Positions 31,268-61,352 of a stretch of 64,000 nt of DNA are shown here, piece after piece. The DNA is from a virus. Lineage: Duplodnaviria; Heunggongvirae; Uroviricota; Caudoviricetes. The notes under the pieces are model-generated. The model saw only the letters and a list, made by a program, of their open reading frames with translations. It ran no database searches and had not been told where the DNA came from. The position numbers and the translations under genes are program-made. The stretch lies in the IMG/VR virus record IMGVR_UViG_3300028048_001412, positions 109,858 to 173,857 of that record; one strand, 5' to 3'. The first letter of the stretch is position 1. Every line of letters begins with the position of its first letter.

Positions 31268-32740
31268 GTGATTGAGATGATTAAATTAATTCTTATTGGT
31301 TCTCTAGTAGTCATATTTCTACTAGTTTTAACAAGTGGATATGTAAAGAGTCCACCTGATATTGCATTTATTATTTCTGGTTTAGGCAAAAAACCTAAAG
31401 TTCTTATTGGTCAAGCCGGAATTAGAATTCCTTTCTTTGAAAGATTGGATAAATTATTAGTAAAACAAATATCAGTAGATATTAAAACTAATGGAGCTAT
31501 TCCAACTAAAGATTTTATAGGTGTAGATATAGATGCTATTGCAAAAGTTAGAATAATGACTGATCCTGAAGGAATTCAAAAAGCAATGAAAAACTTTTTG
31601 AATATGTCAGAAGAAAGAATTATTCAATCTCTTACAGATTCTTTGCAAGGAAATATGCGTGAAATTATAGGAACAGTTTCTTTAAAAGAATTATGTACTG
31701 ATAGAAAACAATTTGGTGATCAAATACAAGAGAAAGCACAAGCAGATATGAATGCACTTGGAATTGAAATAATTTCTTGTAATATTCAAAAGATAGAAGA
31801 TGAAAAAGGTCTTATAAATGCTTTAGGTCAAGATAATATGTCTCAAATTCAAAAATCAGCAAGTATTGCTAAAGCTGAGGCTGAAAGAGATGTTAAAATT
31901 GCTCAAGCGGAAGCTGATAAGGCCGCTAATGAAGCAGAAGTAAATGCAAAAACAGAAATTGCTAAAAGAAATAATGATTTAGCAATTAAAGAATCTGAAT
32001 TAAAAGCCATTTCAGATAATGAAAAAGCAAAGGCTGATGCTGCATATGAAATTCAAAAAGAAGAGCAAAGAAGAAGTATAGAAACTCAAAAAGTAAATGC
32101 TGATATTGCTAAAGCATCTAAAGAAGCTGAATTAAAAGAACAAGAGATTAAAGTAAAACAAAATACTTTAGCCGCTGAAATTAAAGCAACTGCTGATGCT
32201 GAAAAATATAGAAAAGAAAAAGAAGCAGAAGCTATTAAATTAGTAGCAATGCAAGAAGCAGAAGCAATTAGAGTTAAAGGTGAAGCAGAAGCAGAGGCAA
32301 TTAGAGCAAAAGGTAAAGCAGAAGCTGACGCAATGTTAGAAAGAGCAAAAGCATATCAACAATATAATAAATATGCAGCAATTGAAAAAATAGTTGATAT
32401 ATTACCACAAGTTGCAAAAGAAGTATCTTCTCCAATCACTCAAATTAAAGATATTAAAATCTTTGATGGTGGAAGTGATGGAAATGGTGTTACTCAAGTA
32501 GGCGGATATGTTCCGGGAGTAATGGCTAAGACATTCGAAACAGTAAAAGCAGCTACCGGGATAGATTTAGGCGAAGTTGTAAAAGGTGAAACATATGATG
32601 CTAAAGTAAATAAAAATATAAAGATAGATTCTCAATTAAATTCAAAAACAGCAGAAAGAATTTATGATAAGAAAGCTAAAGCTGAAAAAGAAATGATTGA
32701 GAAAGAAATTAAAAATCAATCAGAAGGAGATGAAGAATAA
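31268..32740 (+). CDS. Flotillin-like SPFH/band-7 membrane protein
   Basis: N-terminal TM. SPFH region. Long Ala/Glu/Lys-rich coiled coil AEAERDVKIAQAEADKAANEAE, typical of FloT/YuaG. Confidence 0.6.
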   Translation: MIEMIKLILIGSLVVIFLLVLTSGYVKSPPDIAFIISGLGKKPKVLIGQAGIRIPFFERLDKLLVKQISVDIKTNGAIPTKDFIGVDIDAIAKVRIMTDPEGIQKAMKNFLNMSEERIIQSLTDSLQGNMREIIGTVSLKELCTDRKQFGDQIQEKAQADMNALGIEIISCNIQKIEDEKGLINALGQDNMSQIQKSASIAKAEAERDVKIAQAEADKAANEAEVNAKTEIAKRNNDLAIKESELKAISDNEKAKADAAYEIQKEEQRRSIETQKVNADIAKASKEAELKEQEIKVKQNTLAAEIKATADAEKYRKEKEAEAIKLVAMQEAEAIRVKGEAEAEAIRAKGKAEADAMLERAKAYQQYNKYAAIEKIVDILPQVAKEVSSPITQIKDIKIFDGGSDGNGVTQVGGYVPGVMAKTFETVKAATGIDLGEVVKGETYDAKVNKNIKIDSQLNSKTAERIYDKKAKAEKEMIEKEIKNQSEGDEE

Positions 32741-33333
32741 TGAGTAATTGGTTTAAAAAACTAATGGAAGAAGGGAAACGCAGATCAAATCAATATAATC
32801 AGGAAAATAATAAATGTACTTGCGGATGTAGTTGCTCATGTAACAATCATCAATCTACTAAAAAAAGTAATGGTATTCATTTAAGTAAAGAAGAAAAAGC
32901 CAGAAGAAGATGTCTAGCAATGACTCTTAATAATACTCCAAAGAAACCTTACATTTATCAAGGAAATGAAATATTAAATGTTAATCCTAATGATAAAACA
33001 GTAACTATTCGTTGGAATGATGGAACTACTACTAAATCTAAAGCTATTGATGGCGATTATTTTGATGTAGGATATGGAATACTTCTTGCAACTTCTAAAA
33101 AATTAATAAAAGGATTATGTATTGATGCTTTAGAAACAATACTTCCTGAAAGATTTCAAAAAGAAGGAATGGTATATGTTCTTGAAACTATGTTATTAAA
33201 TATACCAGGAGCAGGAAAGAAAGTAATAAATGATATTCATAAAGAAAGTAGAAATTATAAGAAAGCATATTTTAATCAAATCAGAAGTGAATTAGCAAAA
33301 AGTCTTATAAATCTACTTGAGCAATTTAAGTAA
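32740..33333 (+). CDS. Hypothetical protein with N-terminal Cys cluster (CTCGCSCSC); TAATG-coupled to flotillin gene
   Basis: 197-aa ORF. Confidence 0.45.
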   Translation: MSNWFKKLMEEGKRRSNQYNQENNKCTCGCSCSCNNHQSTKKSNGIHLSKEEKARRRCLAMTLNNTPKKPYIYQGNEILNVNPNDKTVTIRWNDGTTTKSKAIDGDYFDVGYGILLATSKKLIKGLCIDALETILPERFQKEGMVYVLETMLLNIPGAGKKVINDIHKESRNYKKAYFNQIRSELAKSLINLLEQFK

Positions 33334-33348
33334 GAAGGAGAGGTTTGA

Positions 33349-33564
33349 ATGAAAAATGAAAAACCCTCTAAAACTAATAATAAGAAAACTTTACTTGAAT
33401 TAAGGAAAGAACAAAAAATATCTCGTAATAAATTGGCTGAAATATTAAAAATAAGCCCTCAAAGTATTTATAATTATGAGACATATTGTGTTCAACCTTC
33501 AGTAACTGTTGCTCAAATAATTGCTAAATACTTTAATATGAATGTAGAAGATATACAATGGTAA
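33349..33564 (+). CDS. XRE/Cro-type helix-turn-helix transcriptional regulator
   Basis: LLELRKEQKISRNKLAEILKISPQSIYNYE. Confidence 0.6.
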   Translation: MKNEKPSKTNNKKTLLELRKEQKISRNKLAEILKISPQSIYNYETYCVQPSVTVAQIIAKYFNMNVEDIQW

Positions 33565-33597
33565 TTATCAAGTAAAATTTAATATTTATAAGTAAAA

Positions 33598-33630
33598 GCA
33601 AGGTATTTTTCATTAATATCTTGCTTTTTT
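33598..33630 (+). terminator. Rho-independent terminator
   Basis: GCAAGGTAT/ATATCTTGC hairpin + TTTTTT. Confidence 0.6.
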
Positions 33631-33666
33631 CATTTTATTTAAAGAAATATTTTTTAAAAATTACCC

Positions 33667-33695
33667 TTGATTTTTTGTAATAAATATCATATAAT
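33667..33695 (+). promoter_or_regulatory. Sigma70/SigA-like promoter (-35 TTGATT, 17-nt spacer, -10 TATAAT), followed by GTATAATATAAAT motif at 33700
   Basis: Consensus spacing. A 45-nt block is nearly identical to 63268-63312. Confidence 0.6.
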
Positions 33696-33749
33696 ATTAG
33701 TATAATATAAATATAATATTATCATATTACAAGAAAGGAGATAATTATT

Positions 33750-34196
33750 ATGAGGACTATATGGTTAGACATGGATGGCACAATAATAGACCTCTATGCC
33801 GATCCAAATTGGTTAAAAAGAATAGAAGATGAAGATGTTTCTTTATATGAAGAAGCAAAACCTTTAATTAACATAAAAGATTTTAAAAAATGTTGTAAAA
33901 AATTACAAGATAAAGGTTATAAGATAGGTATTATAAGTTATTTACCTTGGGAAGCATCTAAAAAATATAAGAAAGCAGTTAAGAAAGCAAAAGAAAATTA
34001 TTTGAAAAATTATTTTTCAGATATTACTTTTGATGAAGTTCATATAGAAGATTATACGGTTCCTAAACATTCTTTAGCAAGTAAAGGTGATTGTATTTTT
34101 GACGATGATATTAAAAATAGAAAAGATTGGGATAAAGGAAGAGCATTTACTGAAAAGAATATAATAGAAAAACTTAAAAAATTATATTTGAAGTAG
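33750..34196 (+). CDS. HAD-like hydrolase (5'(3')-deoxyribonucleotidase-like)
   Basis: N-terminal WLDMDGTIIDL (DxDGT motif I). Confidence 0.45.
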   Translation: MRTIWLDMDGTIIDLYADPNWLKRIEDEDVSLYEEAKPLINIKDFKKCCKKLQDKGYKIGIISYLPWEASKKYKKAVKKAKENYLKNYFSDITFDEVHIEDYTVPKHSLASKGDCIFDDDIKNRKDWDKGRAFTEKNIIEKLKKLYLK

Positions 34197-34211
34197 AAAG
34201 GAAACACATAT

Positions 34212-34661
34212 ATGAATTTTGATCAATTAATTTATCTTTTAATTAGTGGATATTTAGGATGTTTCATAACCGGAATATTATTTTTCATAATATTAAATTT
34301 TGAATTATATATTCTCAATGGTTTATTTAAGAAAGTGAATAATTTAAATTCTTTAGCTAAAAAGAATTGGGATGAAATAGGACAAGTAATAACTCTTATT
34401 CAGAAAGATCCTAAACACATTAATTCATATTCAGAAGAAGAATTTAAAAAAGTATGTAAACAAATAGAAGAAATATCATTATTTAGTATTTATATTTGGA
34501 CAGTTCAAATACCATTATTAATGAATAAGATAAAGAAATGGTTAAATTCCACTCAAAATACAATAAATGTTATAAATATGTTTCTAAAATTAATAACATT
34601 TGGTAAAATAAAATTTGAAACTAGGACTAATTTTAAAGGAGGAAACACATATGGAAATTAA
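34212..34661 (+). CDS. Hypothetical membrane protein
   Basis: Two predicted TM stretches. Confidence 0.45.
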   Translation: MNFDQLIYLLISGYLGCFITGILFFIILNFELYILNGLFKKVNNLNSLAKKNWDEIGQVITLIQKDPKHINSYSEEEFKKVCKQIEEISLFSIYIWTVQIPLLMNKIKKWLNSTQNTINVINMFLKLITFGKIKFETRTNFKGGNTYGN

Positions 34662-35604
34662 GAAATTTGTAGATATTGAGAATTTAAGAGAAAAAGATAC
34701 TTTATTGAACGGATTGGTTACTAGAGGAAGAAATGATTTAAATTTCAGACCTGGCAATCAGATTTCAATAACTACTAAAGTAGATGGTTCAAACGCTTCT
34801 GTTGGATATAATGCAGAAACAGATAAATTAGAATGTTGGAGTAGAAGATTGCCATTAAAGTTTGATAATACTTTAAATGGATTTTTTGAATATGTTCAAT
34901 TATTAGATGTTTCTCCTTTCAAAAATCATCCTACATATAGAGTATTTGGTGAATGGATGCCATTTCAAAGAACAAATAAAATAACATATGATGAAAAGAT
35001 GAATCATAGATGGATAATTTATTCTATTTATGATATAAAAGAAGAAAAATGGTTAACTCAAGATATTGTTAAATCTTTCTGTGAAGAATCAGGATTAGAA
35101 TATGTAGAAGTTTTATATGAAGGTCCATTTATTTCATGGGATCATTGTAGAGAATTTATGAATAAATCTAAATACGGTGATAAACAAGAAGGAATAGTAA
35201 TTAGAAATATGGACGGTATTTATAATCCTGATGTTAAATATCCTTGGATTCTTAAAATAGTAGGAGAAGAATTTTCAGAAATAATGAAACATTCTAGAAA
35301 ACCTAAAGATCCTGAAGAAGAAAGAAGAAAACAAGGAGCTAAAGGAAAAGCCGCTGAAATATTATCTACTGTAATTACTAAAAATAGAATTGAAAAAGCA
35401 ATTACTAAATTCCAAGAAGATGGAATATTACCAAAACAATTATCTGATAAAGATATGGGAAATATAGCAAAAATACTTCCAAAAGCAATATATGAAGATA
35501 TATTGAAAGAAGAACCTGAAACTTTACAAGCATCTGGAGAATATGGCCCAAAAGTATTAGGACAAATGGTAATGGCTATAGTAAGACCTATGATATTAGG
35601 ATAA
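34651..35604 (+). CDS. ATP-dependent nucleic-acid ligase, RNA ligase 2-like size and motifs
   Basis: Motif I TTKVDGSNASVGY (KxDG). EGIVIRN (motif IV). KYPWILKIVGEEF (motif V). The likely start at 34651 follows a GGAGG RBS. The track ORF began at 34615. Confidence 0.55.
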   Translation: MEIKKFVDIENLREKDTLLNGLVTRGRNDLNFRPGNQISITTKVDGSNASVGYNAETDKLECWSRRLPLKFDNTLNGFFEYVQLLDVSPFKNHPTYRVFGEWMPFQRTNKITYDEKMNHRWIIYSIYDIKEEKWLTQDIVKSFCEESGLEYVEVLYEGPFISWDHCREFMNKSKYGDKQEGIVIRNMDGIYNPDVKYPWILKIVGEEFSEIMKHSRKPKDPEEERRKQGAKGKAAEILSTVITKNRIEKAITKFQEDGILPKQLSDKDMGNIAKILPKAIYEDILKEEPETLQASGEYGPKVLGQMVMAIVRPMILG

Positions 35605-35623
35605 TAAAATAGGAGAAATAAAA

Positions 35624-35636
35624 GTATAATATAAAT
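35624..35636 (+). promoter_or_regulatory. GTATAATATAAAT motif abutting ATG of small ORF
   Basis: Motif instance. The ATG is at 35637. Confidence 0.35.
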
Positions 35637-35795
35637 ATGGATAATAGAGAGAAAAAAATCAAACAATGTGAATTTTGTACTTCTTTTCTAAATATAGATA
35701 AAGAAAAGAAAGATAGTATATGTACAAATCCAGAAAGTCCTTGTTATAATTGCTGGGTTAGTAGAACTCAAGAAGGATGTGAATGTTTTGAATAA
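35637..35795 (+). CDS. Small Cys-rich protein (52 aa), not in ORF track
   Basis: MDNREKKIKQCEFC...CYNCW...GCECFE. Has the same motif-ATG arrangement as the polymerase gene. Confidence 0.35.
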   Translation: MDNREKKIKQCEFCTSFLNIDKEKKDSICTNPESPCYNCWVSRTQEGCECFE

Positions 35796-35822
35796 ATTGT
35801 AAATAGGAGGATATTATATTTA

Positions 35823-36041: not shown

Positions 36042-36239
36042 ATGGAAAAATGGATCATTTATAGAAATAATGGACATGATATAATAGGAAATGAAGATGT
36101 AGGATATCAAATAACAAATGATATAAAAAATGCACTTATTTTTCCAAATGAATCTTCAGCAAGAGATTATAAGAAATTTTATGATGAAGAATCTATAAAA
36201 TCAGGAAATGGAAAATGGATGGTAAAACAAATACAATGA
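36042..36239 (+). CDS. Hypothetical small protein
   Basis: 65-aa ORF. Confidence 0.35.
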   Translation: MEKWIIYRNNGHDIIGNEDVGYQITNDIKNALIFPNESSARDYKKFYDEESIKSGNGKWMVKQIQ

Positions 36240-37504
36240 TTTATCAATATGACAAAAATATAATAGAGCAATATATTAAAGAAGGATGGTTAATAAGAAA
36301 ATGGCATCCTACTTTACCGTTACAAATTCTTAATTACAGCAGAGCTACTGAATATTCAGGAAAATGGGATGATATTACTAAAAACTGCAGAGGATTAGTT
36401 TTAGATGATAATTACAAGGTAGTAAGTCCTTGTATGCCTAAATTTTTTAACTTCTATCAACATCAAACAGAAGATCAGAAAATAATAGAAGAAAAAATGA
36501 AACATGGTTTTTATAATATCATGGCCAAGTACGATGGATGCTTGGGTTCAGTCTTTGAATATAACGGAGAAATTGTTTGTGCTTCTAAAGGCTCTTTTGA
36601 TTCATTTGTTACTAAAGAAATGTATAAAATGATAGATGGAAAATTATTCATAAATGATTTTGAAACCGTAAAATCTAATCTTATAGTAGAAGTTATTCAT
36701 CCAAATACTCATATCTTATGCAATTACGGAGATACAAAAGAATTTAGAGTTATAACTTCTTTTAGATGTGACAGAAAGAATAATGATTATTTCGAATGGT
36801 CTTATGAAGATACTTTAAATATAATTCATAATATGGATCCAAATCAAGAATTATTGAAACCTATAGAATCTTATAATATGACATTTGAACAATTAAGAGA
36901 ATGGCAAAAGAAACATAATGATAAATTAACTGAAGGATTTGTAGTAAGATTTTTAGATGATTCAGACTCAAAAATACAAAGAGTTAAGTTCAAATCAGAA
37001 GAATATTTATCTATCGCGGCAGTAAAATCAAATGCAGATCCAATTCATATATGTAATAATGCATTGGAATTATTTAAAGATAGAAAAAATTGGCCTAAAT
37101 ATGAAAATGGAAAATGGTTGGATTATTTATATGCTCAAGTTAAAGAAATTCCAGAAGATGAATTAAGAGATAAAGCATTTAATATATGTACTAATTTATG
37201 GGTAAAAACAGAATTTATATATGATAAATTCTTTATGATTGCTCAAAAATATAAAGATTTATCTGATAAAGAATTAGGAATGAAAGCAAAAGAAGATTCT
37301 GAATTAAAAAAGAATCTTAATTATATTTTCAATATTAGACACGATAAACCTTTTGATAGAGTTCTTATAGAAATGGCAAAACAAGAATTCATAGAATTTG
37401 AATCTTTACCAGAAGAAGAAAAAGAAAGAATTAGACAAGAAAAAGAAATAAAATTAGAAAAACATAAACAAAAATTAGATGAATGGAGGAAATCTCAATG
37501 TTAG
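36215..37504 (+). CDS. RNA ligase 1-like (T4 RnlA-like) nucleotidyltransferase
   Basis: IMAKYDGCLGSVF (KxDG; T4 Rnl1 has KEDGSLVSTY). EGFVVRF. KFKSEEY. The true start may be the ATG at 36236 (ATGA overlap with the previous stop). Confidence 0.55.
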   Translation: MDGKTNTMIYQYDKNIIEQYIKEGWLIRKWHPTLPLQILNYSRATEYSGKWDDITKNCRGLVLDDNYKVVSPCMPKFFNFYQHQTEDQKIIEEKMKHGFYNIMAKYDGCLGSVFEYNGEIVCASKGSFDSFVTKEMYKMIDGKLFINDFETVKSNLIVEVIHPNTHILCNYGDTKEFRVITSFRCDRKNNDYFEWSYEDTLNIIHNMDPNQELLKPIESYNMTFEQLREWQKKHNDKLTEGFVVRFLDDSDSKIQRVKFKSEEYLSIAAVKSNADPIHICNNALELFKDRKNWPKYENGKWLDYLYAQVKEIPEDELRDKAFNICTNLWVKTEFIYDKFFMIAQKYKDLSDKELGMKAKEDSELKKNLNYIFNIRHDKPFDRVLIEMAKQEFIEFESLPEEEKERIRQEKEIKLEKHKQKLDEWRKSQC

Positions 37505-40062: not shown

Positions 40063-40869
40063 ATGAATGATATAAAACAATATTGGAAAAATAAAGATAC
40101 TAAAGCACAAGAAGCCAAAGTTCATACAGAATTAATGGAAAAATTCAATAAAAAAGAGATTGAGAATTCAATAGAAGGAACTATTGAATATGAAGAACAT
40201 AAAAATATTGAATTAAATACTTCTATTTCTAATCAAATTCCAGAATTTATATTAGATGATATTGATTCTGTTTCTGCAATATTCAAATATAAAGAAGATG
40301 ATGTTAAAATGGCAGTATTAAATTTTGCATCATTTAAATTTGCAGGCGGAGGATTTATTAAAGGTTCTATTGCACAGGAAGAATGTTTATGTCATGAATC
40401 TTTTTTATATAATGTATTATCTAAAAAAGAAGATTTTTATGCAAAAAATAGAACTATATTAAATGATAGCCTTTATAAAAATAGAGGATTATATTCTCCA
40501 GATATTCAATTTAGTAGAAAGATAGAGGATAATAATATCATATGTAATTGCAATGTTATAACAGTTGCAGCTCCTAATAAAAGAGCATATTTACAACATA
40601 ATGAGAAAAGTAAAGAATTGGAAGAGATAAATAAAAGATATTTAGTTTCTAGATGTAATTTTGTACTTACTATTGCTAAACTTCATAATATTAAAACACT
40701 AATATTAGGTGCTTTTGGATGTGGAGTATTTAATCAAGATCCAGAAGAAGTAGCTTTAGCATTTAGAACATTATTAGAACAATACGATTATGGTGTAGAA
40801 AAAGTAATATTTGCTATTCCTAATAAAAATGATCCGAATTATCAAGGATTTTTTAAATATTTTAAGTAA
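40063..40869 (+). CDS. PARG-type macrodomain protein (DUF2263/TIGR02452-like poly/mono-ADP-ribose glycohydrolase)
   Basis: LNFASFKFAGGGFIKGSIAQEE matches the PARG catalytic signature GGG-X6-8-QEE. Confidence 0.55.
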   Translation: MNDIKQYWKNKDTKAQEAKVHTELMEKFNKKEIENSIEGTIEYEEHKNIELNTSISNQIPEFILDDIDSVSAIFKYKEDDVKMAVLNFASFKFAGGGFIKGSIAQEECLCHESFLYNVLSKKEDFYAKNRTILNDSLYKNRGLYSPDIQFSRKIEDNNIICNCNVITVAAPNKRAYLQHNEKSKELEEINKRYLVSRCNFVLTIAKLHNIKTLILGAFGCGVFNQDPEEVALAFRTLLEQYDYGVEKVIFAIPNKNDPNYQGFFKYFK

Positions 40870-42168: not shown

Positions 42169-42696
42169 ATGCAAGAAACAATCATAAAAGAAAAATGTAT
42201 TTATTTAGATATTGATGGAGTACTTAACTCTGATAAAACTTTAGCCAGAACTCCTAATAGGTATATAGGAATAAGTTCGGATAAAGTTAAATTGTTAAAA
42301 GAAATTGTTAAAGCCACTGATGCTTGTATTGTTTTATCTTCTTCTTGGAGACTGATGGAAGAATATGATGAAGATAAAAAATATTTATATAAACAATTAA
42401 GATATAAAGATTTAAAAATAGTGGATCAAACTAAAAAATTATCTATGAATAGAGGACTTGAGATATCAAAGCATTTAGAAGAACATCCAGAAATTAAATC
42501 TTTTGTAATATTAGATGATGAATTTGCATTGCAATTTAAAGAATGTGGATTATCTAAACATTATATTCAAACTGATTATACCACTGGTTTAACTAAAGAT
42601 GATGTAATGAAAGCAATTAAAATATTGAATGATGAATTTGATAATGTAAACTATAAAGATAATTCTAATGAAGAACATTTTGGAAGAGAATTATAA
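42169..42696 (+). CDS. HAD-like phosphatase (polynucleotide 3'-phosphatase-like?)
   Basis: CIYLDIDGVLN motif I. VILDDE motif. Confidence 0.4.
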   Translation: MQETIIKEKCIYLDIDGVLNSDKTLARTPNRYIGISSDKVKLLKEIVKATDACIVLSSSWRLMEEYDEDKKYLYKQLRYKDLKIVDQTKKLSMNRGLEISKHLEEHPEIKSFVILDDEFALQFKECGLSKHYIQTDYTTGLTKDDVMKAIKILNDEFDNVNYKDNSNEEHFGREL

Positions 42697-49462: not shown

Positions 49463-49726
49463 ATGACAAGACAACAAATAGAAGAAGGATTAAGAGTTTC
49501 TGAAAAAATAACTACTTTAGAAAATGCATTAAATACAGTAACTAATTCAGTATTTGATGGTCAAGATAGAAAAGAAGTAGTATCTAATTATATTCATAAT
49601 GGATGTTTATCAAGTGAAGTATTAGTATTACTTTCTTCAGAAGATTGTAAAAAGATAAATAGTGCTATTTATGATGTACTATGTGAAAATATTAAAAAGT
49701 TACAAGAACAAATGAGCAATATATAA
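49463..49726 (+). CDS. Hypothetical protein
   Basis: 87-aa ORF with a GGAGG RBS. Confidence 0.4.
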   Translation: MTRQQIEEGLRVSEKITTLENALNTVTNSVFDGQDRKEVVSNYIHNGCLSSEVLVLLSSEDCKKINSAIYDVLCENIKKLQEQMSNI

Positions 49727-50610: not shown

Positions 50611-50829
50611 TTGGGAATATTTAGTTGGAGAGAAATGTTTGATGATAATGTAAAAGATTCAAATTATCATTTAAACAAATTGGCAAATTTAGCCAATAAT
50701 AATATAAAACCAACATTAAGATCTGATTATATAGATGTTGTAGATTGGAAAAAATCAGATAATATAGAATATATTCTAGTGTATGCAGTTGGTTTTATAC
50801 TAATGGGATTACTTATGTTTCTAAAATAA
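50611..50829 (+). CDS. Small membrane protein (possible NfeD-like partner of stomatin)
   Basis: 72 aa, C-terminal TM. Immediately downstream of the stomatin gene. TTG start. Confidence 0.3.
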   Translation: MGIFSWREMFDDNVKDSNYHLNKLANLANNNIKPTLRSDYIDVVDWKKSDNIEYILVYAVGFILMGLLMFLK

Positions 50830-50916: not shown

Positions 50917-52599
50917 ATGATTAAAAGATTATCTATAATTTTAATAAGTATAATTTTATTATCTAATAATGTTTTTGCGGAAGCTGCTATAATTTATGCT
51001 CCTACTAAACCTGTAGAAATAAAAGAAATAATAACTACTAATAATTATGATAATTATATTCCTGAGGAAAAAGGACCTATAACATCTGAAGTTATAGGAT
51101 ATTCTCTATCTTCTGATCCAGCAATGCAAGATTATATAAATATTTATAATTTATCGGAAGATTCAAATGGATATTTATATATAAAATCATCTAATAATCA
51201 ATATGTAAAGAATGCTTGGAGAAAAGTAAATATTAGAAGTTTTGAAAGAGTTGGTGGAAATACAGAAGGATTCAATAATAATTATGTTTGGGTATATTGC
51301 GGAAGTAATGGTAGATTATTAAAAGCATCATCTGGAAAAATGAAAATATATAAAATAGATAATAAAGCTTATGCTTTTAATGAATATGGCCAAATGATAG
51401 AAGGATATTTTAATGATGAAGGAGAAATATGGGATAAAAGTAATGATTCTGCTCCTTGGGAATTATTAAATGGTTCTAACTATCTATATTATGCTGATAA
51501 AAATGGTAATTTATATTCAGGATGGCTTCAATATAATGGAATTTTTACAGATGATTATGAATGGAAAAATAATATATGGTTCTATTTTGACCCTAAAAAT
51601 TATAAATCAATAAGAGCAAAAAATGATTATTATAAATTACAACAAATAGGTTCTAAAAAATATGCATTTGATAGTAATGGCGTAATGTTAACAGGAATGG
51701 ATGCTCTTAAATATAAATCAGATTCAGACGAATCAATTAAATATTTTAATTCTGATGGTTCAGTAGTAACTAATGGATTTGTTAAACTAAATTGGGATGA
51801 TGAAGTAGTAGAAGAAAACTTTAGTGATTACGATGATTATGATGAAGATATATCTATTTTCTTAAATAAATCAGGAAAAATGTATAAAGATATGATTAAG
51901 AAAATAAATAGTTCTTATTATGGATTTGATGATAATGGAGTAGTTCTTAAAAATTGTTTAGGTATATTCAATAATAATCATTTCGTAGATACAGTTTCAA
52001 TAGAAGATACAAATGGAAGAAGTTTTATATTAAAAGGTAAATATACTAATAAACATGGAAATAATGGAACTTATACTAAAGATTTAGGTAGTTTATATTA
52101 TTTTGATAATTCTGGTAAAAGACAAACTAGTGGAACTTTAAATTTTGATGACGATGATTATAAATGGGGTGCTTCAAATACAGGAGCATATGAAGATAGT
52201 AAACAAGGATATATTTATATTCATGGATTAGCTCTTAAAGCAGATAAAGATTTAAAATATGGAATATATGTTCAAAATCCTACTAAAGATACTTATTCTA
52301 ATAATGAATTATATACTTTGAATGATGTTTATGTTATAAATACTAGTGGAAAAAAAGTTAATGGTGGTTCTTCTACTATTAAAGATTCAGATGATAATTA
52401 TTGGAGAATATCTTCAAATGGATTATTTAGAGGGGTATATTCTGTTAAAGTTAGATCTAATGAATGGTATTCTTATTCTAAAAATGGAAAAGAAGAATGG
52501 ATTCCTATTGATCAGGCAGATGGTAGAGGAAAACATTTAGATGATTATAGAGTTAGATTAAATAATGAATATGGTTTGAATATAAACATTAGAAATTAA
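50917..52599 (+). CDS. Secreted protein with multiple choline/cell-wall-binding (YG) repeats
   Basis: Signal peptide. Repeats such as GWLQYNGIFTDDYEWKNNIWFYFDPKN, YAFDSNGVMLTG, YYGFDDNGVVLKN, LYYFDNSGKRQTSG. Confidence 0.55.
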   Translation: MIKRLSIILISIILLSNNVFAEAAIIYAPTKPVEIKEIITTNNYDNYIPEEKGPITSEVIGYSLSSDPAMQDYINIYNLSEDSNGYLYIKSSNNQYVKNAWRKVNIRSFERVGGNTEGFNNNYVWVYCGSNGRLLKASSGKMKIYKIDNKAYAFNEYGQMIEGYFNDEGEIWDKSNDSAPWELLNGSNYLYYADKNGNLYSGWLQYNGIFTDDYEWKNNIWFYFDPKNYKSIRAKNDYYKLQQIGSKKYAFDSNGVMLTGMDALKYKSDSDESIKYFNSDGSVVTNGFVKLNWDDEVVEENFSDYDDYDEDISIFLNKSGKMYKDMIKKINSSYYGFDDNGVVLKNCLGIFNNNHFVDTVSIEDTNGRSFILKGKYTNKHGNNGTYTKDLGSLYYFDNSGKRQTSGTLNFDDDDYKWGASNTGAYEDSKQGYIYIHGLALKADKDLKYGIYVQNPTKDTYSNNELYTLNDVYVINTSGKKVNGGSSTIKDSDDNYWRISSNGLFRGVYSVKVRSNEWYSYSKNGKEEWIPIDQADGRGKHLDDYRVRLNNEYGLNINIRN

Positions 52600-52614: not shown

Positions 52615-53145
52615 TTGAAAAGAATTAATGAATATTTTGGAGAAATTAAAGATGTTAAAGGACCAAGTATAGTAAACGCCCCCGTAAATTGTTATAAACA
52701 AGGAAGAGATTGGACGTGCAGTGTAGCTTGTATAAGAACCGCAATAAGTGCATTTAAAAATATTTCAGAAGAAGAAATCATTAAAGAAGAACAATTAAAA
52801 ATGGGTGGACAATCTATAGAAAATATAAAAAATTGGAAATGTTTAGATGGATTAAAAATAGAAACAAAAGCTACTAGAGAAATAAATGATAGTCAAGGAT
52901 TATATGATTTATTATTAGATAACTATATAGTAATATGTGCTAGTACTTATAATTTATGGCATTATATAGTTTGTTATGGATATTTAACTACTAATGAAAG
53001 AAATAATCCTGAAAATCAATATGTATTATTCTACGATCCATATTTAGATGAGCATAAACTTATAAATGCAGATATATTTGATACTATGTGGTATGATATA
53101 GGAACAAGTAAATATAGAGATTATATTGCTATCAAACAAGATTAA
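52615..53145 (+). CDS. Putative papain-like cysteine peptidase (C39-like?)
   Basis: Cys region CYKQGRDWTCSVACIRTA and His region WHYIVCYGY. Weak call. Confidence 0.25.
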   Translation: MKRINEYFGEIKDVKGPSIVNAPVNCYKQGRDWTCSVACIRTAISAFKNISEEEIIKEEQLKMGGQSIENIKNWKCLDGLKIETKATREINDSQGLYDLLLDNYIVICASTYNLWHYIVCYGYLTTNERNNPENQYVLFYDPYLDEHKLINADIFDTMWYDIGTSKYRDYIAIKQD

Positions 53146-55615: not shown

Positions 55616-56203
55616 TTGATATTATTTGTAGGTGGATTATTTTGTTATTATAATTTTAAGAATTATGTAGAAAATTTATTTTATAACATAAAAAGAAAAG
55701 AAGTAATTTATAGGACTTGTAAAGAAGTAAATCAAGCAGATATTGATAATGCAGATATAATTATTGCTTATTCATATGCTATACAATATATGAATACTTT
55801 AAAACTATATAATAAAAAGATAATATTATTAAGTCCTTTATTGAATGATTATAGATTCAAAGACATTATGATAAAAATAGCTGAAAAATTAGTAGATACC
55901 AAATCAGGAATTACTAAATTTGGAACTGAATTATACTGTAAAATGATAGGAGTTAATGAAAAATCATTTAAATATTGGGTGGAAGATGTTCAAGATTGGG
56001 TTAAAGATTATGGAATCAATGAATCTAAAATTCAAAACATTGAGCCTAAAAGCGATTGGATAATAATAGATGGATTTAAGCCAATATGTAAACTTCCAAG
56101 AATAGATGATATAGCTACTGATAATAATGGAAATAAAATAAGACATATTATAAATTACGACAATCATTTATTATTTTTAGATAAATATTTAGGTGTGAAA
56201 TAA
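55616..56203 (+). CDS. Hypothetical protein
   Basis: 195-aa ORF, TTG start. Confidence 0.35.
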   Translation: MILFVGGLFCYYNFKNYVENLFYNIKRKEVIYRTCKEVNQADIDNADIIIAYSYAIQYMNTLKLYNKKIILLSPLLNDYRFKDIMIKIAEKLVDTKSGITKFGTELYCKMIGVNEKSFKYWVEDVQDWVKDYGINESKIQNIEPKSDWIIIDGFKPICKLPRIDDIATDNNGNKIRHIINYDNHLLFLDKYLGVK

Positions 56204-56360
56204 TGAATATTTGGGATGATAAAAAAGAACAAATTGAAAAAGAAGAGTTTAATTCTGAATTGAAAATACAAATAATATTGATATTTGTATTTATTATATT
56301 CATATTATTTATTATAATATTTATGAGAGGAATGGATTTATTAGAAAATCTTTTAATTAG

Positions 56361-56990
56361 ATGAAGAAATTATTAATAGTTATTATATTAATTTTATTTA
56401 ATTGTAATTTTGTCTATTCATTAAATCCAGGATGGAATAATACAGGTGTAAATATTTATTATTCTTTAACAGGATATTGGTGTAATACATTAAAAGGATG
56501 GAATTATATAGATAATAATTGGTATTATTTTGATGAAAGTGGAAGATTACAAATAGATTTATCTTGTAATAATGAATCAAATCCTAAAGATAAAGTAATT
56601 TATTGGTCTCAAATTCTTTATAATAGCAAAAAATGTAAATATGATAATACTCCATCAGGAAGATATGAAGGGTTATCATTTGACTGTAGTTCTTTTGTAG
56701 GTAGATTATATAAAATGGCAGGAATAGATTTCTTTACTAAATATTATAGTTGTGAAAAACAAGCAAATTATTTTAAAGATGAAAATAAATTAATTGACTT
56801 GAATTTGTCAGAGCCAGGAGATTTAGTATATTTTGGAGAAAATTATGCTAATGTAACTCATTGCTCTTTAATAATAGAAAATAATCCTGATATAGGAATA
56901 ATTGTTTTATCTGCTTTTGGAAAAGAAAGAGGATTATATTTAGAAATATTAGATAGAGATGATATTTTATGTATAGCGAGACCATGTTAA
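56361..56990 (+). CDS. Secreted NlpC/P60-family peptidoglycan endopeptidase with N-terminal cell-wall-binding repeat (lysin-like)
   Basis: Signal peptide. GWNYIDNNWYYFDESGRL CW-binding repeat. Catalytic Cys motif FDCSSFVGRLYKMAGIDF. His in NVTHCSLII. Confidence 0.55.
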   Translation: MKKLLIVIILILFNCNFVYSLNPGWNNTGVNIYYSLTGYWCNTLKGWNYIDNNWYYFDESGRLQIDLSCNNESNPKDKVIYWSQILYNSKKCKYDNTPSGRYEGLSFDCSSFVGRLYKMAGIDFFTKYYSCEKQANYFKDENKLIDLNLSEPGDLVYFGENYANVTHCSLIIENNPDIGIIVLSAFGKERGLYLEILDRDDILCIARPC

Positions 56991-57071
56991 TTGAACTACC
57001 ATTAATCTAAAGCTTAATGGTTTTATAGACTCAAAATATAAAAATATTTAAGAGATTTTGGAGGTATTAAA

Positions 57072-57434
57072 TTGAAAGATAACGTAGATGAATTTTTAGT
57101 AGCGTATAAAGCATATGAAATGGTTTGTAGAGCTAAAGGAAAAGAAGTTAAAGATATTGAAGATGAATTAGGTGAAAATAATCCTAAAATGCAGAAGATC
57201 CGAATTTGTAGGCAATTGAGAAACTTCTGCGTTCACAATGAACATGATGATTTCATTCAAATTCATAAAGGAATGATTAAATTCTTAAAAGAAGAAATAA
57301 AATTAAGTAAACAAAAATCAAAGAAAACAAATGTTTCTAATAAAAATACTAAATCTTCTGTTTCTAAAAAGAAAAATGTCAAAATTAATAGTAAATCAAA
57401 TAAAAAGTCCACTATAAAAAAGAAAAGGAAGTAA
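57072..57434 (+). CDS. Hypothetical protein with Lys-rich basic tail
   Basis: 120-aa ORF, TTG start. Confidence 0.4.
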   Translation: MKDNVDEFLVAYKAYEMVCRAKGKEVKDIEDELGENNPKMQKIRICRQLRNFCVHNEHDDFIQIHKGMIKFLKEEIKLSKQKSKKTNVSNKNTKSSVSKKKNVKINSKSNKKSTIKKKRK

Positions 57435-58271
57435 TTGATGACTTTTAGTAATTGGGTTAAAAAGAATTCTAATAAATTAACAAATGTTTCTAAATTAACT
57501 CTTAATGATTGGATAAATAATAGAAATTTACCTGATTGGAAAGAGAGAAATAATATTTTATGGAATAATCATTGTTCAGATGATATAAAAGACGAGGATG
57601 GTTTTACATTTACTGGAAATAAAGCAGGGAAAAATACTAAATTTGATATAAATAATAAAATGCAATATTATAGAAGTGCTACTTGGCAAAAAGTAATGGC
57701 TAGAAAAATTAAATCCACAGGTGGTAAATGTGAAATATGCGGATCAAAAGACAATCTCACTGTTCATCACCGTGAGTATACAGCTAATTGGGGAGGGAAG
57801 GAATCGGACGATGAACTCTTGACTTGTTGCAAGCGTTGCCATATGCTGCAACACAAAGATAAACCAGAATGTGTAAAACAATATAATGAATTAATGTCTC
57901 CAATAAGAAGTATAGTTATAAATGTTAAATCTGATGGTTCAATTACTCCTCATGTATTTACTAATTGTGATGATGATATGATAAGAGCATATATGGTAGA
58001 TATGTATAAAAAAGCAAAAGTAATTAAATATATAAAAAACTGTAGATTATATAAAACCAAATTAGAAGGCGAACCTAATAAAGCAAATGATAGATGGTTT
58101 GCTATAAGTATAAATAATAAAAATGAAGTAGTAGAACTTCATCAATGTAATTCTAAAAAAGAGGCTGAAAAATATAAAAAGAAAAATTTAAAAAATTTCG
58201 TAGTATTTAAGCCTTCTAAAACCATTGATTCGGAAAAGTTAAATCAGATATATCATCCTAAAAAGAAATAA
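57435..58271 (+). CDS. HNH endonuclease
   Basis: CEICGSKDNLTVHHREY...CCKRCHMLQH. Confidence 0.65.
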   Translation: MMTFSNWVKKNSNKLTNVSKLTLNDWINNRNLPDWKERNNILWNNHCSDDIKDEDGFTFTGNKAGKNTKFDINNKMQYYRSATWQKVMARKIKSTGGKCEICGSKDNLTVHHREYTANWGGKESDDELLTCCKRCHMLQHKDKPECVKQYNELMSPIRSIVINVKSDGSITPHVFTNCDDDMIRAYMVDMYKKAKVIKYIKNCRLYKTKLEGEPNKANDRWFAISINNKNEVVELHQCNSKKEAEKYKKKNLKNFVVFKPSKTIDSEKLNQIYHPKKK

Positions 58272-58296
58272 AGGACCGCGAGGAAAACAAAAATAT

Positions 58297-58830
58297 ATGA
58301 AAAATGTATTATCATTTGAATGGTTAACGAAAAAGAATATAAGTGAAATGGATTTAATCCGTAGATTATTATTAAAAAATTATAATCTAGTAGATTTAGA
58401 ACCAGAGATTTTAGATAGTGTAATTAGCGGAGAATGCAAACAATTCTACCCTATTATAGATTATGCTATAATTAAAGTAAATAATAAAAGTGTAGGTCTT
58501 ATTGGTCAATATAATTCATTTTTATTTAAAAATGATTTATGGTTAGGATGGGCTGGAATATTACCTGAATTTCATGATAAGAAAAAATCATATATGAAAA
58601 ATGCAATGAAATTATGGGAAGCATATGTAAAAAAGAAATATCCTAATATTGATCATTTAAGAGCATATATTTCTAAAAGCAAAGAAAAAGACGATTTAAT
58701 TTATCTAAAAGATTTAGGATATAAATTAGAAAAAGGAATGTATAAACATTATCAAGATGATGATATAATAATATTAAGTAAATGTTTAAAAGGAGAATAT
58801 AGACCTTGGACTAGAAAACCCGTTTGGTAA
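58297..58830 (+). CDS. Hypothetical protein (possible acetyltransferase-like)
   Basis: 177-aa ORF. Confidence 0.4.
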   Translation: MKNVLSFEWLTKKNISEMDLIRRLLLKNYNLVDLEPEILDSVISGECKQFYPIIDYAIIKVNNKSVGLIGQYNSFLFKNDLWLGWAGILPEFHDKKKSYMKNAMKLWEAYVKKKYPNIDHLRAYISKSKEKDDLIYLKDLGYKLEKGMYKHYQDDDIIILSKCLKGEYRPWTRKPVW

Positions 58831-58939
58831 AAATTTATTAATATATTTTATTTTGATTTTTCAGTATAAATAGTATAATAATTATAATATATAATATTAA
58901 AATAATATTAAGCAAATGTTTAAAAGGAGAATATAGTGA

Positions 58940-59473
58940 ATGAATAATTCGGGAGCAATAATGGCAGGAGTGTTAATATTTGTAGTTCTTATTGTTTTAT
59001 TTACAATTGTTTTTTCTATAATGTGTTTATGGAAAATATACGAAAAAGCAGGAGAACCAGGTTGGAAATGTTTAGTTCCTATTTATAATACTTGGACTTT
59101 ATATAAGTTTATCAAAATGCCAGTAGTTGTATTTTGGATAGCTTTAGCATCTAGTATATTACAAAATATATTTAGTTCTACTATAACTGTGAATGGAGAA
59201 ATTTATTATCAAAGTATAACTAGTTTAGGACCTGTTGGAACTATTTGTGCAATAATATCATTAATAATCTATGTAATGGTTAGTTATAAATTATCATTAG
59301 CTTTTGGTAAAGGAATAGGATATACTATACTTTTAATTTTTATAATTGGTTATCCTATGTTAGCATTTGGAAGTGCTCAATATCAATATAATTCAATAAA
59401 TGATAATGATTATGGAAATTCTCATTTTAATGATAATAACGATGATGAATTTCAAATGATAGATGAAAATTAA
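58940..59473 (+). CDS. Hypothetical multi-pass membrane protein
   Basis: Four hydrophobic helices. Acidic C-terminus. Confidence 0.45.
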   Translation: MNNSGAIMAGVLIFVVLIVLFTIVFSIMCLWKIYEKAGEPGWKCLVPIYNTWTLYKFIKMPVVVFWIALASSILQNIFSSTITVNGEIYYQSITSLGPVGTICAIISLIIYVMVSYKLSLAFGKGIGYTILLIFIIGYPMLAFGSAQYQYNSINDNDYGNSHFNDNNDDEFQMIDEN

Positions 59474-59605
59474 TATCAACAACCTAGTGGTTAAATACCA
59501 CAAGGTTTGTGAAAACAAACCTTACGTTGATTAGCTTTAATAACAGTTTGTGGGAAATGTCATTCACATAAAAATCATCAAAAAGGTGGAATTTTACATA
59601 AATGG

Positions 59606-60139
59606 ATGCAAAAGAAAAAGAAAGTAAAAACATATAAAGAACCAACATTTATGAATATCTTACAAAGTAGAATTATAAAAGAATACCCAAATGCAAGAAT
59701 AACTTATGGATATGAAACAGAAATTAAAAGAATAGAATTAGGATTAGAAAAAGAACATTATAACGACGCAATAGCCATAACAAATTTAGATAATATAAAA
59801 GAAAACTCAAATGAATTTTTATTTATAAAACAGTTTAGAAAGAAAAAGAGAAGTTTACACGAAGCAACTATACGAAAAGGAAGAAAAGAACCAAATAGAT
59901 CTCAAAAACGAAATTCAAAGAATACGGTGACGAATGGAATACATTATTTAGGAGATACAGTAAAAGTAGGAAATAAAATAGGATATGTAAGTGGTTTTTC
60001 AGGAAAACAGTTATATGTAAAAGATTTTGAAGATAATTACATAACAAAAGAAGGAAAGAAATATAAACAAATTGGAGAAAAAGAATGTCTAATAGTAAAA
60101 CACAACAACAATTGGATTTACCAAGCAATTCATCCTTAG
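59606..60139 (+). CDS. Hypothetical basic protein
   Basis: 177-aa ORF. Confidence 0.4.
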   Translation: MQKKKKVKTYKEPTFMNILQSRIIKEYPNARITYGYETEIKRIELGLEKEHYNDAIAITNLDNIKENSNEFLFIKQFRKKKRSLHEATIRKGRKEPNRSQKRNSKNTVTNGIHYLGDTVKVGNKIGYVSGFSGKQLYVKDFEDNYITKEGKKYKQIGEKECLIVKHNNNWIYQAIHP

Positions 60140-60197
60140 TGCTAAAGACTCAAAGGAATTCTTGCTTGAAAAAGTTAAAAAGTGAGGTAAAAGATTA

Positions 60198-61352
60198 ATG
60201 GGCTTAATAAAAGCAATTTCTGGTTCAGTAACTGGTGCACTTGCTGATCAATGGAAAGAAGTATTTGTATGCGATTCATTACCAAATACAGTTTTAGTTA
60301 AAAAAGGTGTTAAAAAAGTAACTGGAAGAAGTTCTAATACTAAAGGAGAAGATAATATCATCTCTAATGGCTCTTTAATTATAGTAAATAATGAACAATG
60401 TGCTATAATTACAGATAATGGTAAAATTAGAGATGTAGTTATGGAACCGGGAGGATTTGAATATCATAATGATACTCAACCTTCTATTTTTGCAGATCAA
60501 GATATAATAGGTGTATTAAAAGAATCTTGGAAAAGATTAGGATATGGAGGTCAACCAGGTTCAGAACAAAGAGTATATTATGTAAATACAAAAGAGATTC
60601 TTGATAATAAATATGGAACAGAAAGTCCATTTAATTATCATTTTGTAGCTAGAGATGAAAATGGAAATTTAATTCAAGGTGGTTCTCTTGATTTAAATGT
60701 AAGATGTCATGGAGTATATTCATTTAGAATAGTAGATCCAATTAAGTTTTATAATAATATAGCTGGAAATATTAAAGAAGAATATAATATAAGCAATATA
60801 GAAACTCAATTAAAAGAAGAATTTGTAACTGCTTTACCAGATGCTCTTTCAAAATTTGGTTCAGAAGGAATATTACCATCACAATTAGTTTCTAAACAAA
60901 CAAAGATTGCTGATAAGATGGATGAGATATTATCTAATAAATGGAAAGAATTAAGAGGATTAGATATTATTTCAGTAGGTGTTAAAATTACATTAACTTC
61001 AGAAGATGATAAGAGACTTAAAGATATTATGCAAATGGGTTCTGGTAAAGAATCAAGAATGGCAGATATTTTAGAAAAAGCCGCAAGTAATTCAGGTGGT
61101 TCAATGGCTGGATTTATGGGAATGAATATGGCTAATATGGGAATGAATGGTATGTTTGGTGGTGCTGTATCTCAAGGAAACAATAATCAAAATCAAGCTC
61201 AAGGAATTAAATGTCCTAAATGTGGAACAGTAAATAATGGAAAATTCTGTTCTAATTGTGGTTCATCTTTATCAACTAGTTGGAAATGTGAGTGTGGAAC
61301 AGAAAATACAGGTAATTTCTGTAATAATTGTGGAAAAAAGAAACCAGAGTAA
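60198..61352 (+). CDS. SPFH-domain protein of the Band_7_1 type (so-called putative virion core protein family) with C-terminal double zinc ribbon
   Basis: N-terminus MGLIKAISGSVTGALADQWKEVF is the hallmark start of this family. C-terminal CPKCG...CSNCG and CECG...CNNCG. Confidence 0.5.
   Translation: MGLIKAISGSVTGALADQWKEVFVCDSLPNTVLVKKGVKKVTGRSSNTKGEDNIISNGSLIIVNNEQCAIITDNGKIRDVVMEPGGFEYHNDTQPSIFADQDIIGVLKESWKRLGYGGQPGSEQRVYYVNTKEILDNKYGTESPFNYHFVARDENGNLIQGGSLDLNVRCHGVYSFRIVDPIKFYNNIAGNIKEEYNISNIETQLKEEFVTALPDALSKFGSEGILPSQLVSKQTKIADKMDEILSNKWKELRGLDIISVGVKITLTSEDDKRLKDIMQMGSGKESRMADILEKAASNSGGSMAGFMGMNMANMGMNGMFGGAVSQGNNNQNQAQGIKCPKCGTVNNGKFCSNCGSSLSTSWKCECGTENTGNFCNNCGKKKPE

Follow-up and report, generated by a model that had tools for sequence, protein, structure and literature searches.

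Three SPFH proteins of separate subfamilies encoded in part of a probable jumbo phage genome

SPFH scaffolds, among them the flotillins, stomatins, HflK/C and YdjI, have a central part in organising membranes and in protection against stress, and their cellular roles in bacteria are debated. Here we describe three genes for such proteins, named SPFH1, SPFH2 and SPFH3 in the order in which they occur, in a stretch of 64,000 nucleotides of viral DNA (positions 109,858 to 173,857 of the IMG/VR virus record IMGVR_UViG_3300028048_001412), which as a whole is called the window. A first annotation made from the DNA alone, referred to below as the sequence-only reading, had proposed that three SPFH proteins are encoded there. 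Our searches agree with that proposal, as all three are open reading frames (ORFs) on the + strand that match Pfam models above the respective cut-offs, with E-values that exclude chance. Their identification as membrane scaffolds, also part of that reading, is supported by homology.

The locus and its three SPFH genes

The window has a guanine-cytosine (GC) content of 25.6%, and nearly all of its long ORFs are on the + strand. It encodes a replication and recombination set consisting of a DnaB-like helicase, a primase, a family-A DNA polymerase, GyrB and GyrA, RecA, Mre11- and Rad50-like proteins and a Suv3-like helicase, together with a phage single-stranded DNA-binding domain protein. The DNA polymerase matches PHROG 1252 (E = 8e-166) and is 47% identical to polymerases of Paenibacillus, Staphylococcus and Bacillus phages. 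Further genes typical of phages are those for four tRNAs, two RNA ligases of the T4 type, the 7-deazaguanine pathway and several HNH/homing endonucleases. Exact copies of SPFH1 and SPFH2 were found on one JGI contig of 284,018 bp, and an ENA assembly holds the same sequence as two contigs of 245,530 and 38,638 bp; with Logan contigs added, the SPFH arrangement recurs in independent assemblies. Because of the exact copies on the 284,018-bp contig and the phage-type genes, we consider the window very probably to be part of an uncultured jumbo phage genome of ~284 kb, an assignment that stops short of proof since no structural genes lie within the 64-kb window. We saw no integrase or lysogeny module in the window, where the single small helix-turn-helix gene is of a common kind. 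A megablast search with 24 kb of the window found no DNA-level relatives in INPHARED, and single-protein scans of IMG/VR gave only relatives of ≤49% identity, with none for SPFH3. The host of the phage is probably a member of the gut Clostridia. Three loci recur in the comparisons below, namely phage B (L017/L018), phage C (L023-L025) and a phage-like contig, contig D (the L162/L163 locus).

SPFH1 matches both Band_7 (E = 2.1e-24; 86.9 bits, cut-off 23.6) and the flotillin family Flot PF15975 (E = 1.5e-8; 35.2 bits, cut-off 27) in Pfam. It begins with a hydrophobic anchor (residues 1-25, a Kyte-Doolittle hydrophobic window); the SPFH domain covers residues 33-206, and an EA-rich flotillin domain with a coiled coil leads on to the C-terminal tail. 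Residues 26-448 align to residues 6-433 of human flotillin-1 (E = 2.4e-62) in 9l3g, the solved flotillin-1/flotillin-2 complex of 44 subunits. The Flot domain and this full-length alignment confirm the flotillin-like assignment made in the sequence-only reading. The NCBIfam FloT model NF058507 is matched at 3.3e-74 with 250.7 bits, under its 700-bit equivalog cut-off, and we class SPFH1 as a flotillin-family member, not as a FloT equivalog. The gene had been drawn from the GTG at 31268, which is an in-frame alternative start; the likelier start is the ATG at 31277, located 5-6 nt past the Shine-Dalgarno sequence GAGAGGTGA, and the gene calls in public assemblies also give a protein of 487 amino acids (aa). 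SPFH1 has the N-terminal anchor, SPFH domain and EA-rich flotillin coiled coil of bacterial FloT (YuaG) and flotillin-1/2, and differs from them in being phage-encoded. In contrast to FloT, it has no NfeD (YuaF-like) gene beside it, and the closest named bacterial homologue, from Otoolea muris, is likewise without an adjacent NfeD gene.

The genes on either side of SPFH1 had been presented as part of its setting. The Mre11-like (Metallophos) and Rad50-like (SbcC Walker B) genes do lie directly upstream, and a link between them and SPFH1 is rejected, since the flotillin gene of phage B sits downstream of the gyrase block instead. On the other side, a soluble ORF with 7 cysteines, no transmembrane (TM) segment and no Pfam family is adjacent to SPFH1 as had been reported. 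Its supposed coupling to SPFH1 does not hold, and we reject it as a dedicated partner, because its homologues in phages B and C (41-42% identity) are not adjacent to an SPFH gene: they are 2.7-3 kb away from one, or in a phage without a flotillin gene in the 20 kb seen.

SPFH2 matches Band_7 with E = 1.8e-39 (136 bits, cut-off 23.6) and consists of an N-terminal TM segment (residues 1-26, by hydropathy), an SPFH domain and a coiled coil, a layout that it has in common with stomatin and Escherichia coli QmcA (YbbK) along with full-length homology. Residues 2-282 align to E. coli QmcA (8z5g) with E = 2e-59, and there are weaker matches to stomatin (~4e-33) and HflK (7e-17); the Band_7 and QmcA matches uphold the description of SPFH2 as stomatin-like. 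Since the curated HflK/HflC cut-offs are not reached in NCBIfam (104.8 against 159.4 for TIGR01933 and 67.5 against 134.4 for TIGR01932), we assign SPFH2 to the stomatin/QmcA type and reject it as HflK or HflC.

While E. coli QmcA has the NfeD partner YbbJ, the phage gene is preceded by an unrelated soluble ORF of 87 aa. Phage C has a homologue of this ORF (56% identity) one gene away from its SPFH2-type gene, contig D has one (39% identity) directly upstream of its own, and none is present upstream of the bacterial SPFH2 homologues. With no match in Pfam, PHROG or PADLOC, it is a candidate for a phage-specific SPFH2 partner. The 72-aa ORF that follows SPFH2 had been put forward as a small NfeD-like membrane partner, and we reject this assignment. 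The ORF has no PF01957 signal, carries its sole TM segment at the C-terminus (51-72, by hydropathy) and is too short in comparison with the 149-178 aa of real NfeD proteins. It has no match in Pfam (E ≤ 0.01), PHROG, NCBIfam or PADLOC, nor a homologue in any related locus compared, including those next to the SPFH2 genes of related phages. In bacteria, a true NfeD (PF01957, 149-178 aa) is encoded directly upstream of QmcA-type genes, as in Faecalibacterium, Allobaculum and a Eubacteriales metagenome-assembled genome (MAG) (L033, L074, L041). No NfeD was found beside the phage SPFH2, where the 87-aa and 72-aa neighbours were tested, or in the bacterial clade with 69-73% identity to it.

Further downstream of SPFH2 lies a gene for a C39-like cysteine peptidase, a protein with neither a signal peptide nor a TM segment; L162 has a C39-like gene with 53% identity, situated 4 kb downstream of its SPFH2-type gene. 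Contig D shares this gene and a 195-aa ORF (55616-56203) with the SPFH2 neighbourhood of the window, and the tie between the peptidase and SPFH2 is only positional. In contig D itself (ENA ERZ28653836 scaffold_109, 221 kb), a 7.8-kb unit is found three times in tandem and holds, besides the SPFH2-type gene, the genes for the homologue of the 87-aa ORF, the C39-like peptidase and an AbiEii-domain protein; the repetition may be a true amplification or may have arisen from a terminal repeat in assembly.

SPFH3 matches Band_7_1 (E = 5.3e-20; 72.4 bits, cut-off 24), the Pfam family to which YdjI presumably also belongs, and by hydropathy has no hydrophobic or TM segment. After a linker (about 294-335) that is G/M/N-rich, of low complexity and disordered in the structure model, the protein ends in two CxxC...CxxC zinc ribbons (C339-C355 and C364-C379) with cysteine columns that are invariant in the 25 homologues aligned. 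The Band_7_1 score and these columns bear out the double zinc ribbon protein described in the sequence-only reading. The AlphaFold model, built from the family alignment, has a mean predicted local distance difference test (pLDDT) score of 71.5, with 80-95 in the core. In a Foldseek search of the PDB, its top 43 matches (E ≤ 0.001) are all SPFH-family proteins or major vault protein with a probability of 0.98-1.0, and include stomatin, HflK/C, prohibitin, QmcA, erlin and flotillin. The SPFH3 family profile has no match among the sequences of solved structures, and the structure is thus a predicted one because solved relatives are undetectable by sequence. The sequence-only reading had named a failure of domain searches to support SPFH folds as the outcome that would speak against it; Pfam supports all three proteins, and Foldseek supports the fold of SPFH3. 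Thousands of Clostridia and Erysipelothrix proteins are 45-50% identical to SPFH3 over its full length including the ribbons. The closest homologue (57% identity) is encoded on L015, a small 25%-GC contig that also carries a BrnT toxin gene (186-476).

Hydropathy agrees that SPFH3 is followed by two membrane proteins, as had been reported. The first, of 130 aa, lacks a TPM domain and any similarity to the TPM protein of the clostridial chromosome L012, has no homologue among the loci compared and matches no family of Pfam, PHROG, NCBIfam or PADLOC; it is a candidate membrane anchor for SPFH3. The second, of 246 aa, begins with a zinc ribbon and continues with ~100 aa of cytosolic domain, a single TM segment at 158-186 and an acidic tail rich in Ser, Asp and Trp. 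A full-length homologue (47% identity overall, 75% over the first 141 aa) is encoded directly upstream of the SPFH3 homologue on L015, and we regard the 246-aa protein as a conserved, probable SPFH3 partner analogous to YdjG. On L012, the SPFH3 homologue is followed by a zinc-ribbon protein with a C-terminal TM segment and then by a TPM-domain membrane protein. The similarity of the 246-aa protein to this clostridial zinc-ribbon partner is confined to the ribbon, and we rejected a wider similarity of the 130-aa and 246-aa proteins to the clostridial TPM and zinc-ribbon partners, as the ribbon motif alone matches. A 156-aa ORF further downstream, for which these four collections give no family match either, is probably transcribed as a unit of its own and may lie outside the cassette.

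In Bacillus subtilis, YdjI depends on two membrane proteins, YdjH and the zinc-ribbon protein YdjG, both for its membrane localisation and for the recruitment of PspA (PMC8581546; PMC9239133; bioRxiv 10.64898/2026.02.06.704340). By comparison of descriptions, YdjI (SamI) resembles SPFH3 in being a soluble SPFH protein without a TM segment and with a low-complexity region and C-terminal zinc finger(s) (PMC8581546, PMC9239133). The phage cassette likewise has two adjacent membrane proteins, one of which starts with a zinc ribbon. The gene order is reversed in comparison with B. subtilis YdjG/H/I, with the SPFH gene first in the phage, and the phage 130-aa membrane protein lacks the TPM domain found in the L012 operon. 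In contrast to the B. subtilis system, there is no pspA nearby in the phage, with no Pfam match to PspA/IM30 among the scanned window genes or the flanks seen. Taken together, the phage SPFH3 cassette appears to be a reduced version of the YdjG/H/I arrangement.

Table 1. Positions of the SPFH genes, their neighbours and other features in the window
Feature	Position	Strand	Basis or remark
SPFH1, FloT/flotillin-type scaffold, 487 aa	31277-32740	+	Pfam, structure alignment
Cys-rich soluble ORF, 197 aa	32740-33333	+	Overlaps SPFH1 stop codon
Soluble ORF, 87 aa, immediately upstream of SPFH2	49463-49726	+	Conserved in related loci
SPFH2, stomatin/QmcA-type scaffold, 284 aa	49754-50608	+	Pfam, structure alignment
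72-aa ORF	50611-50829	+	64 aa if started at ATG 50635, as in public assemblies
C39-like cysteine peptidase, 176 aa, cytosolic	52615-53145	+	Peptidase_C39 8.7e-5 (22.8 bits, cut-off 22)
SPFH3, Band_7_1 (COG4260, YdjI/SamI-like) soluble SPFH protein, 384 aa	60198-61352	+	Pfam, model
Membrane protein, 130 aa, ~3 TM segments, downstream of SPFH3	61398-61790	+	Hydropathy; own ribosome-binding site
Bitopic membrane protein, 246 aa	61807-62547	+	Weak Zn_ribbon_3 match; hydropathy
156-aa ORF, N-terminal signal-like hydrophobic segment	62662-63132	+	Preceded by promoter-like TGGGTATAAT
Radical-SAM QueE-like gene	20444-21193
GTP cyclohydrolase I	21198-22085
MazG	23720-24073
QueC	24553-25314
DUF7487 homing endonuclease	25338-26462		Inserted in queuosine-type cluster
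PTPS/QueD	26450-26878
Two T4-type RNA ligases	34615-35604, 36215-37504		PHROG 548 and 562
Four tRNA genes	46388, 46558, 63464, 63702

Host origin, retention and occurrence in other phages

The sequence-only reading had described the three SPFH proteins as paralogous, a description that our comparisons do not support. SPFH1 and SPFH2 are 26% identical, SPFH3 has no BLAST similarity to either, and each of the three has bacterial homologues that resemble it more than the other two do. We conclude from these alignments that they represent three separate SPFH subfamilies and are not paralogues in a recent sense. The closest bacterial relatives are from Clostridia in all cases, with ~60% identity for SPFH1 ('flotillin family proteins' of Lachnospiraceae and other Clostridia), 69-73% for SPFH2 (chromosomal genes of uncultured Clostridiales) and 45-57% for SPFH3.

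SPFH2 belongs to a tight clade with 68-79% identity, well apart from the generic clostridial homologues (~50%). Its members in phage C and contig D are 79% and 72-75% identical to SPFH2. The clade is mixed: L023 and L162 are phage-like, and L021, L026 (annotated as 'uncultured Clostridiales bacterium RUG816') and L164 are bacterial, with a two-component system, CdaA, SerS, a Na/H exchanger and a nonribosomal peptide synthetase as context. A phage-only clade is therefore rejected, since these three are bacterial chromosomes. We also rejected the possibility, raised by gyrB upstream of them, that the bacterial copies are phage remnants, as the GyrB proteins of L021 and L026 are only 29-30% identical to phage GyrB. 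In a neighbour-joining tree, the SPFH2 of the window groups with that of phage C and contig D is placed elsewhere. We infer that the SPFH genes were captured from Clostridia hosts on separate occasions, with at least two host-phage transfers likely in the SPFH2 clade. In a Lachnospiraceae MAG (L031, 5995-8543), a flotillin-type gene (509 aa, Band_7 + Flot) comes right after a QmcA-type gene, and thus both scaffold types can be neighbours in potential hosts.

The gyrase block of the window and several of its small ORFs are also present in phages B and C. In both of these phages, the slot downstream of the gyrase block is syntenic and holds an SPFH gene, the flotillin gene in phage B (75-77% identical to SPFH1 at the protein level) and the SPFH2-type gene in phage C. 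Overall, SPFH identity between the phages is 75-79%, as compared with 55-59% for GyrA and GyrB. The ratio of nonsynonymous to synonymous substitution (dN/dS, by the Nei-Gojobori method) is 0.17 for SPFH1 and 0.17-0.20 for SPFH1/SPFH2 versus ~0.39 for gyrase, values that are approximate with dS near saturation in a genome of 25% GC. GC content at third codon positions (GC3) is 0.09-0.13 in the three SPFH genes and equals that of the phage core genes. The genes are co-oriented, have good ribosome-binding sites and are flanked by phage genes. High inter-phage identity, low dN/dS and core-like GC3 indicate that the SPFH genes are long-resident and selectively maintained, and neither assembly artefacts nor fresh passengers. 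As far as it can be judged from sequence, this retention in the phage lineage shows that the SPFH genes matter to the phage, and it leaves their role unspecified. Two features of the related phages were seen in passing. Phage B has an LPG_synthase_TM (MprF-like, lipid-modifying) gene 2.3 kb downstream of its flotillin gene (L017/L018, 13192-14079), which gives the lineage another gene for membrane remodelling, and the GyrA of phage C is interrupted by a LAGLIDADG-endonuclease intein (L023/L024, 1669-5058), giving 1129 aa versus 717 aa in the window.

SPFH genes have been listed in other phages. SPFH/Band 7 ORFs were reported in the T4-like phages 44RR, Aeh1 and RB43 in 2006 (PMC1524935), an SPFH ORF in Vi01-like phages (PMC3220722) and SPFH domain proteins in the Xanthomonas jumbo phage X1 (PMC13384950). 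PHROG 200 covers phage SPFH proteins and gave matches in our searches. The cases in T4-like and Vi01-like phages, X1 and PHROG 200 are like the window in that they are annotations without a function in large lytic phages. They differ in that each is a single, weakly matching SPFH ORF or is left unspecified, whereas the window has three subfamilies with high identity to host proteins. Our literature search found annotation-level mentions and no functional study of a phage SPFH protein or flotillin.

Among large IMG/VR contigs, the flotillin type is fairly common (27 loci with a GC content of 26-52%), followed by the QmcA type (11 loci) and the YdjI type (3 loci that match beyond the ribbon). 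No IMG/VR contig and no INPHARED accession had two of the three types together in pattern-limited scans, and because of that limit the rarity of the combination is indicated rather than measured. In two multi-contig 'Enterococcus/Listeria phage' entries, two types are matched on separate records, and we suspect that these matches are host DNA. Each of the three proteins, judged by its family matches, is an ordinary member of a known family. What is unusual is that three subfamilies are combined, that the canonical partners are lost and that the 87-aa ORF is a candidate partner specific to phages.

A role in membrane management and its alternatives

Host-derived SPFH genes that are maintained in a phage suggest that the phage manages the host membrane during infection. 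The reading that we favour, with a probability of roughly 0.45, is that the phage supplies its own host-derived set of SPFH proteins for membrane maintenance or takeover and that no novel biochemical activity is involved. The SPFH genes would be expressed from the replication and accessory region. SPFH1 and SPFH2, by homology to the solved assemblies of flotillin, QmcA, stomatin and HflK/C, would insert their N-termini in the cytoplasmic membrane and oligomerise to cage- or dome-shaped scaffolds, which would enclose patches of membrane together with client proteins. Membrane recruitment of SPFH3 would depend on the 130-aa and 246-aa proteins, as that of YdjI does on YdjG and YdjH in B. subtilis. 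With host gene expression presumably shut down, an own supply of three kinds of scaffold could keep the membrane organised, fluid, energised and intact during the long infection of a jumbo phage, and the scaffolds could control membrane-bound clients such as proteases. A bacterial parallel exists in B. subtilis, which has SPFH proteins of just these three kinds, FloT, FloA and YdjI, all of which influence membrane fluidity and stress protection (PMC8581546). The envelope-acting genes of the window and the LPG-synthase-like gene of phage B fit a theme of envelope management.

Several points weigh against this reading. The canonical partners are not beside the genes, with no NfeD by SPFH1 or SPFH2 and no TPM-domain protein or PspA by SPFH3, and the phage proteins may therefore work differently or use partners of the host. 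High identity between the phages could come in part from separate acquisitions from similar hosts, with contig D clustering apart, and the near-saturated dS bears on the constraint argument as well. The stretch examined is 64 kb of a ~284-kb genome, and phage and host are both uncultured. Finally, 'membrane maintenance' is generic, and sequence hardly separates it from exclusion or counter-defence. None of nine proteins (the SPFH proteins and neighbours) matched a PADLOC model at E ≤ 0.01.

The alternatives carry less weight. Superinfection exclusion and counter-defence were, besides a platform for replication or assembly, roles that the sequence-only reading had proposed. One alternative, which we consider unlikely, is control of proteolysis, in which SPFH2 and possibly SPFH1 would cage a membrane-associated protease, either host FtsH or the phage C39-like peptidase, and in this way stabilise phage proteins or time lysis. 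FtsH is the partner of HflK/C and has also been reported for B. subtilis flotillins. The SPFH2 homologues QmcA, stomatin and HflK form solved assemblies that enclose or partner proteases or NfeD, and putative lysis and envelope genes lie between SPFH2 and SPFH3. The HflK/HflC equivalog models, however, stay under their cut-offs, and the role of FtsH is drawn from other systems alone. The C39-like gene and the 195-aa ORF recur near the SPFH2-type gene of contig D, which is distantly related, yet this neighbourhood was not seen in the 20 kb of phage C, and the C39 match is marginal in a protein without a TM segment or signal peptide.

We give about the same low weight to superinfection exclusion or competition between phages, with an altered membrane blocking DNA injection or membrane steps of other phages. 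The SPFH genes are in an accessory region among membrane and secreted proteins, and in Vi01-like phages the SPFH ORF is annotated beside a superinfection-exclusion gene (PMC3220722). A Sie-like PHROG family is matched very weakly, and not significantly, by the 246-aa protein (E = 0.009), and the PADLOC models gave no matches. The window also has no integrase or lysogeny module, and the strong conservation and three subfamilies suit a housekeeping-like role more than a fast-evolving role in conflict.

Still less probable is counter-defence, in which abortive-infection effectors of the host would depolarise the membrane or make it permeable and the scaffolds would buffer or repair the damage, letting the phage finish its cycle. 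Proteins of the YdjI type connect the membrane with the PspA response, which repairs it, and loss of flotillins or YdjI alters fluidity (PMC8581546). Other candidates for such a role are present in the window, namely a PARG-like gene, two RNA ligases with tRNAs and 7-deazaguanine genes. Against this stand the absence of a PspA/IM30 gene in the window or the flanks seen and the lack of matches to known anti-defence families, and the idea is wholly inferential. Comparably doubtful is a more elaborate form of membrane takeover, with the scaffolds and the phage-specific partners (the 87-aa, 130-aa, 246-aa and possibly C39-like proteins) forming a dedicated, phage-built membrane platform. If true, such a platform would anchor or compartmentalise replication, assembly or the timing of lysis in a Gram-positive host, and would be a bacterial-virus analogue of the exploitation of membrane rafts by eukaryotic viruses. 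That the SPFH genes are role-less recent host genes, or bacterial DNA mis-assembled into a phage contig, is very improbable: jumbo phages in general accumulate host-like genes and SPFH2 is up to 73% identical to bacterial genes, but the recurrence of the arrangement in the JGI, ENA and Logan assemblies, the core-like GC3, the conserved orthologues with low dN/dS and the placement of the co-oriented genes between phage genes largely refute it.

To our knowledge, phage SPFH ORFs have appeared in genome papers for ~20 years without a functional study. In the lineage described here, the host-derived copies are more strongly constrained than the phage gyrase, as shown for SPFH1 and SPFH2. This constraint, together with three types that parallel FloT, FloA and YdjI of B. 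subtilis, argues that control of membrane scaffolds matters for large Firmicute phages. The compact, partner-poor variants also represent natural 'minimal' systems, the QmcA type lacking NfeD and the YdjI type lacking both TPM and PspA proteins. Their value is limited by an uncultured host and phage and by proteins that are conventional for their families.

Other genes of the window

Envelope-acting genes occur around and between the SPFH genes (50917-52599, 52615-53145, 56203-56990, 58940-59473 and 15907-16632). One of them encodes a secreted 560-aa protein with choline-binding-type repeats. Another, for a secreted NlpC/P60 endopeptidase that bears a cell-wall-binding repeat, comes after a 53-aa ORF with a TM segment, and the two are a possible holin/endolysin pair. 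The window also encodes a membrane protein with DUF5684 and a protein with a YkuD (L,D-transpeptidase) domain. Upstream of SPFH3, three successive ORFs are each exactly 177 aa long (58297-60139); we rejected them as paralogues, as their sequences are unrelated. The C-terminal part of the IscB model is weakly matched by the third of them (59606-60139; E = 6.6e-7, far under the cut-off).

A microbial PARG-like (poly-ADP-ribose glycohydrolase) gene at 40063-40869 and a HAD_SAK_2 gene at 42169-42696, both identified with Pfam, are possible counter-defence candidates. RNA ligases and tRNAs, both of which are present in the window, form a classic repair kit against anticodon-nuclease damage. A 7-deazaguanine/queuosine-type gene cluster extends from 20444 to 26878 and suggests, from its predicted gene content, 7-deazaguanine modification of the phage DNA.

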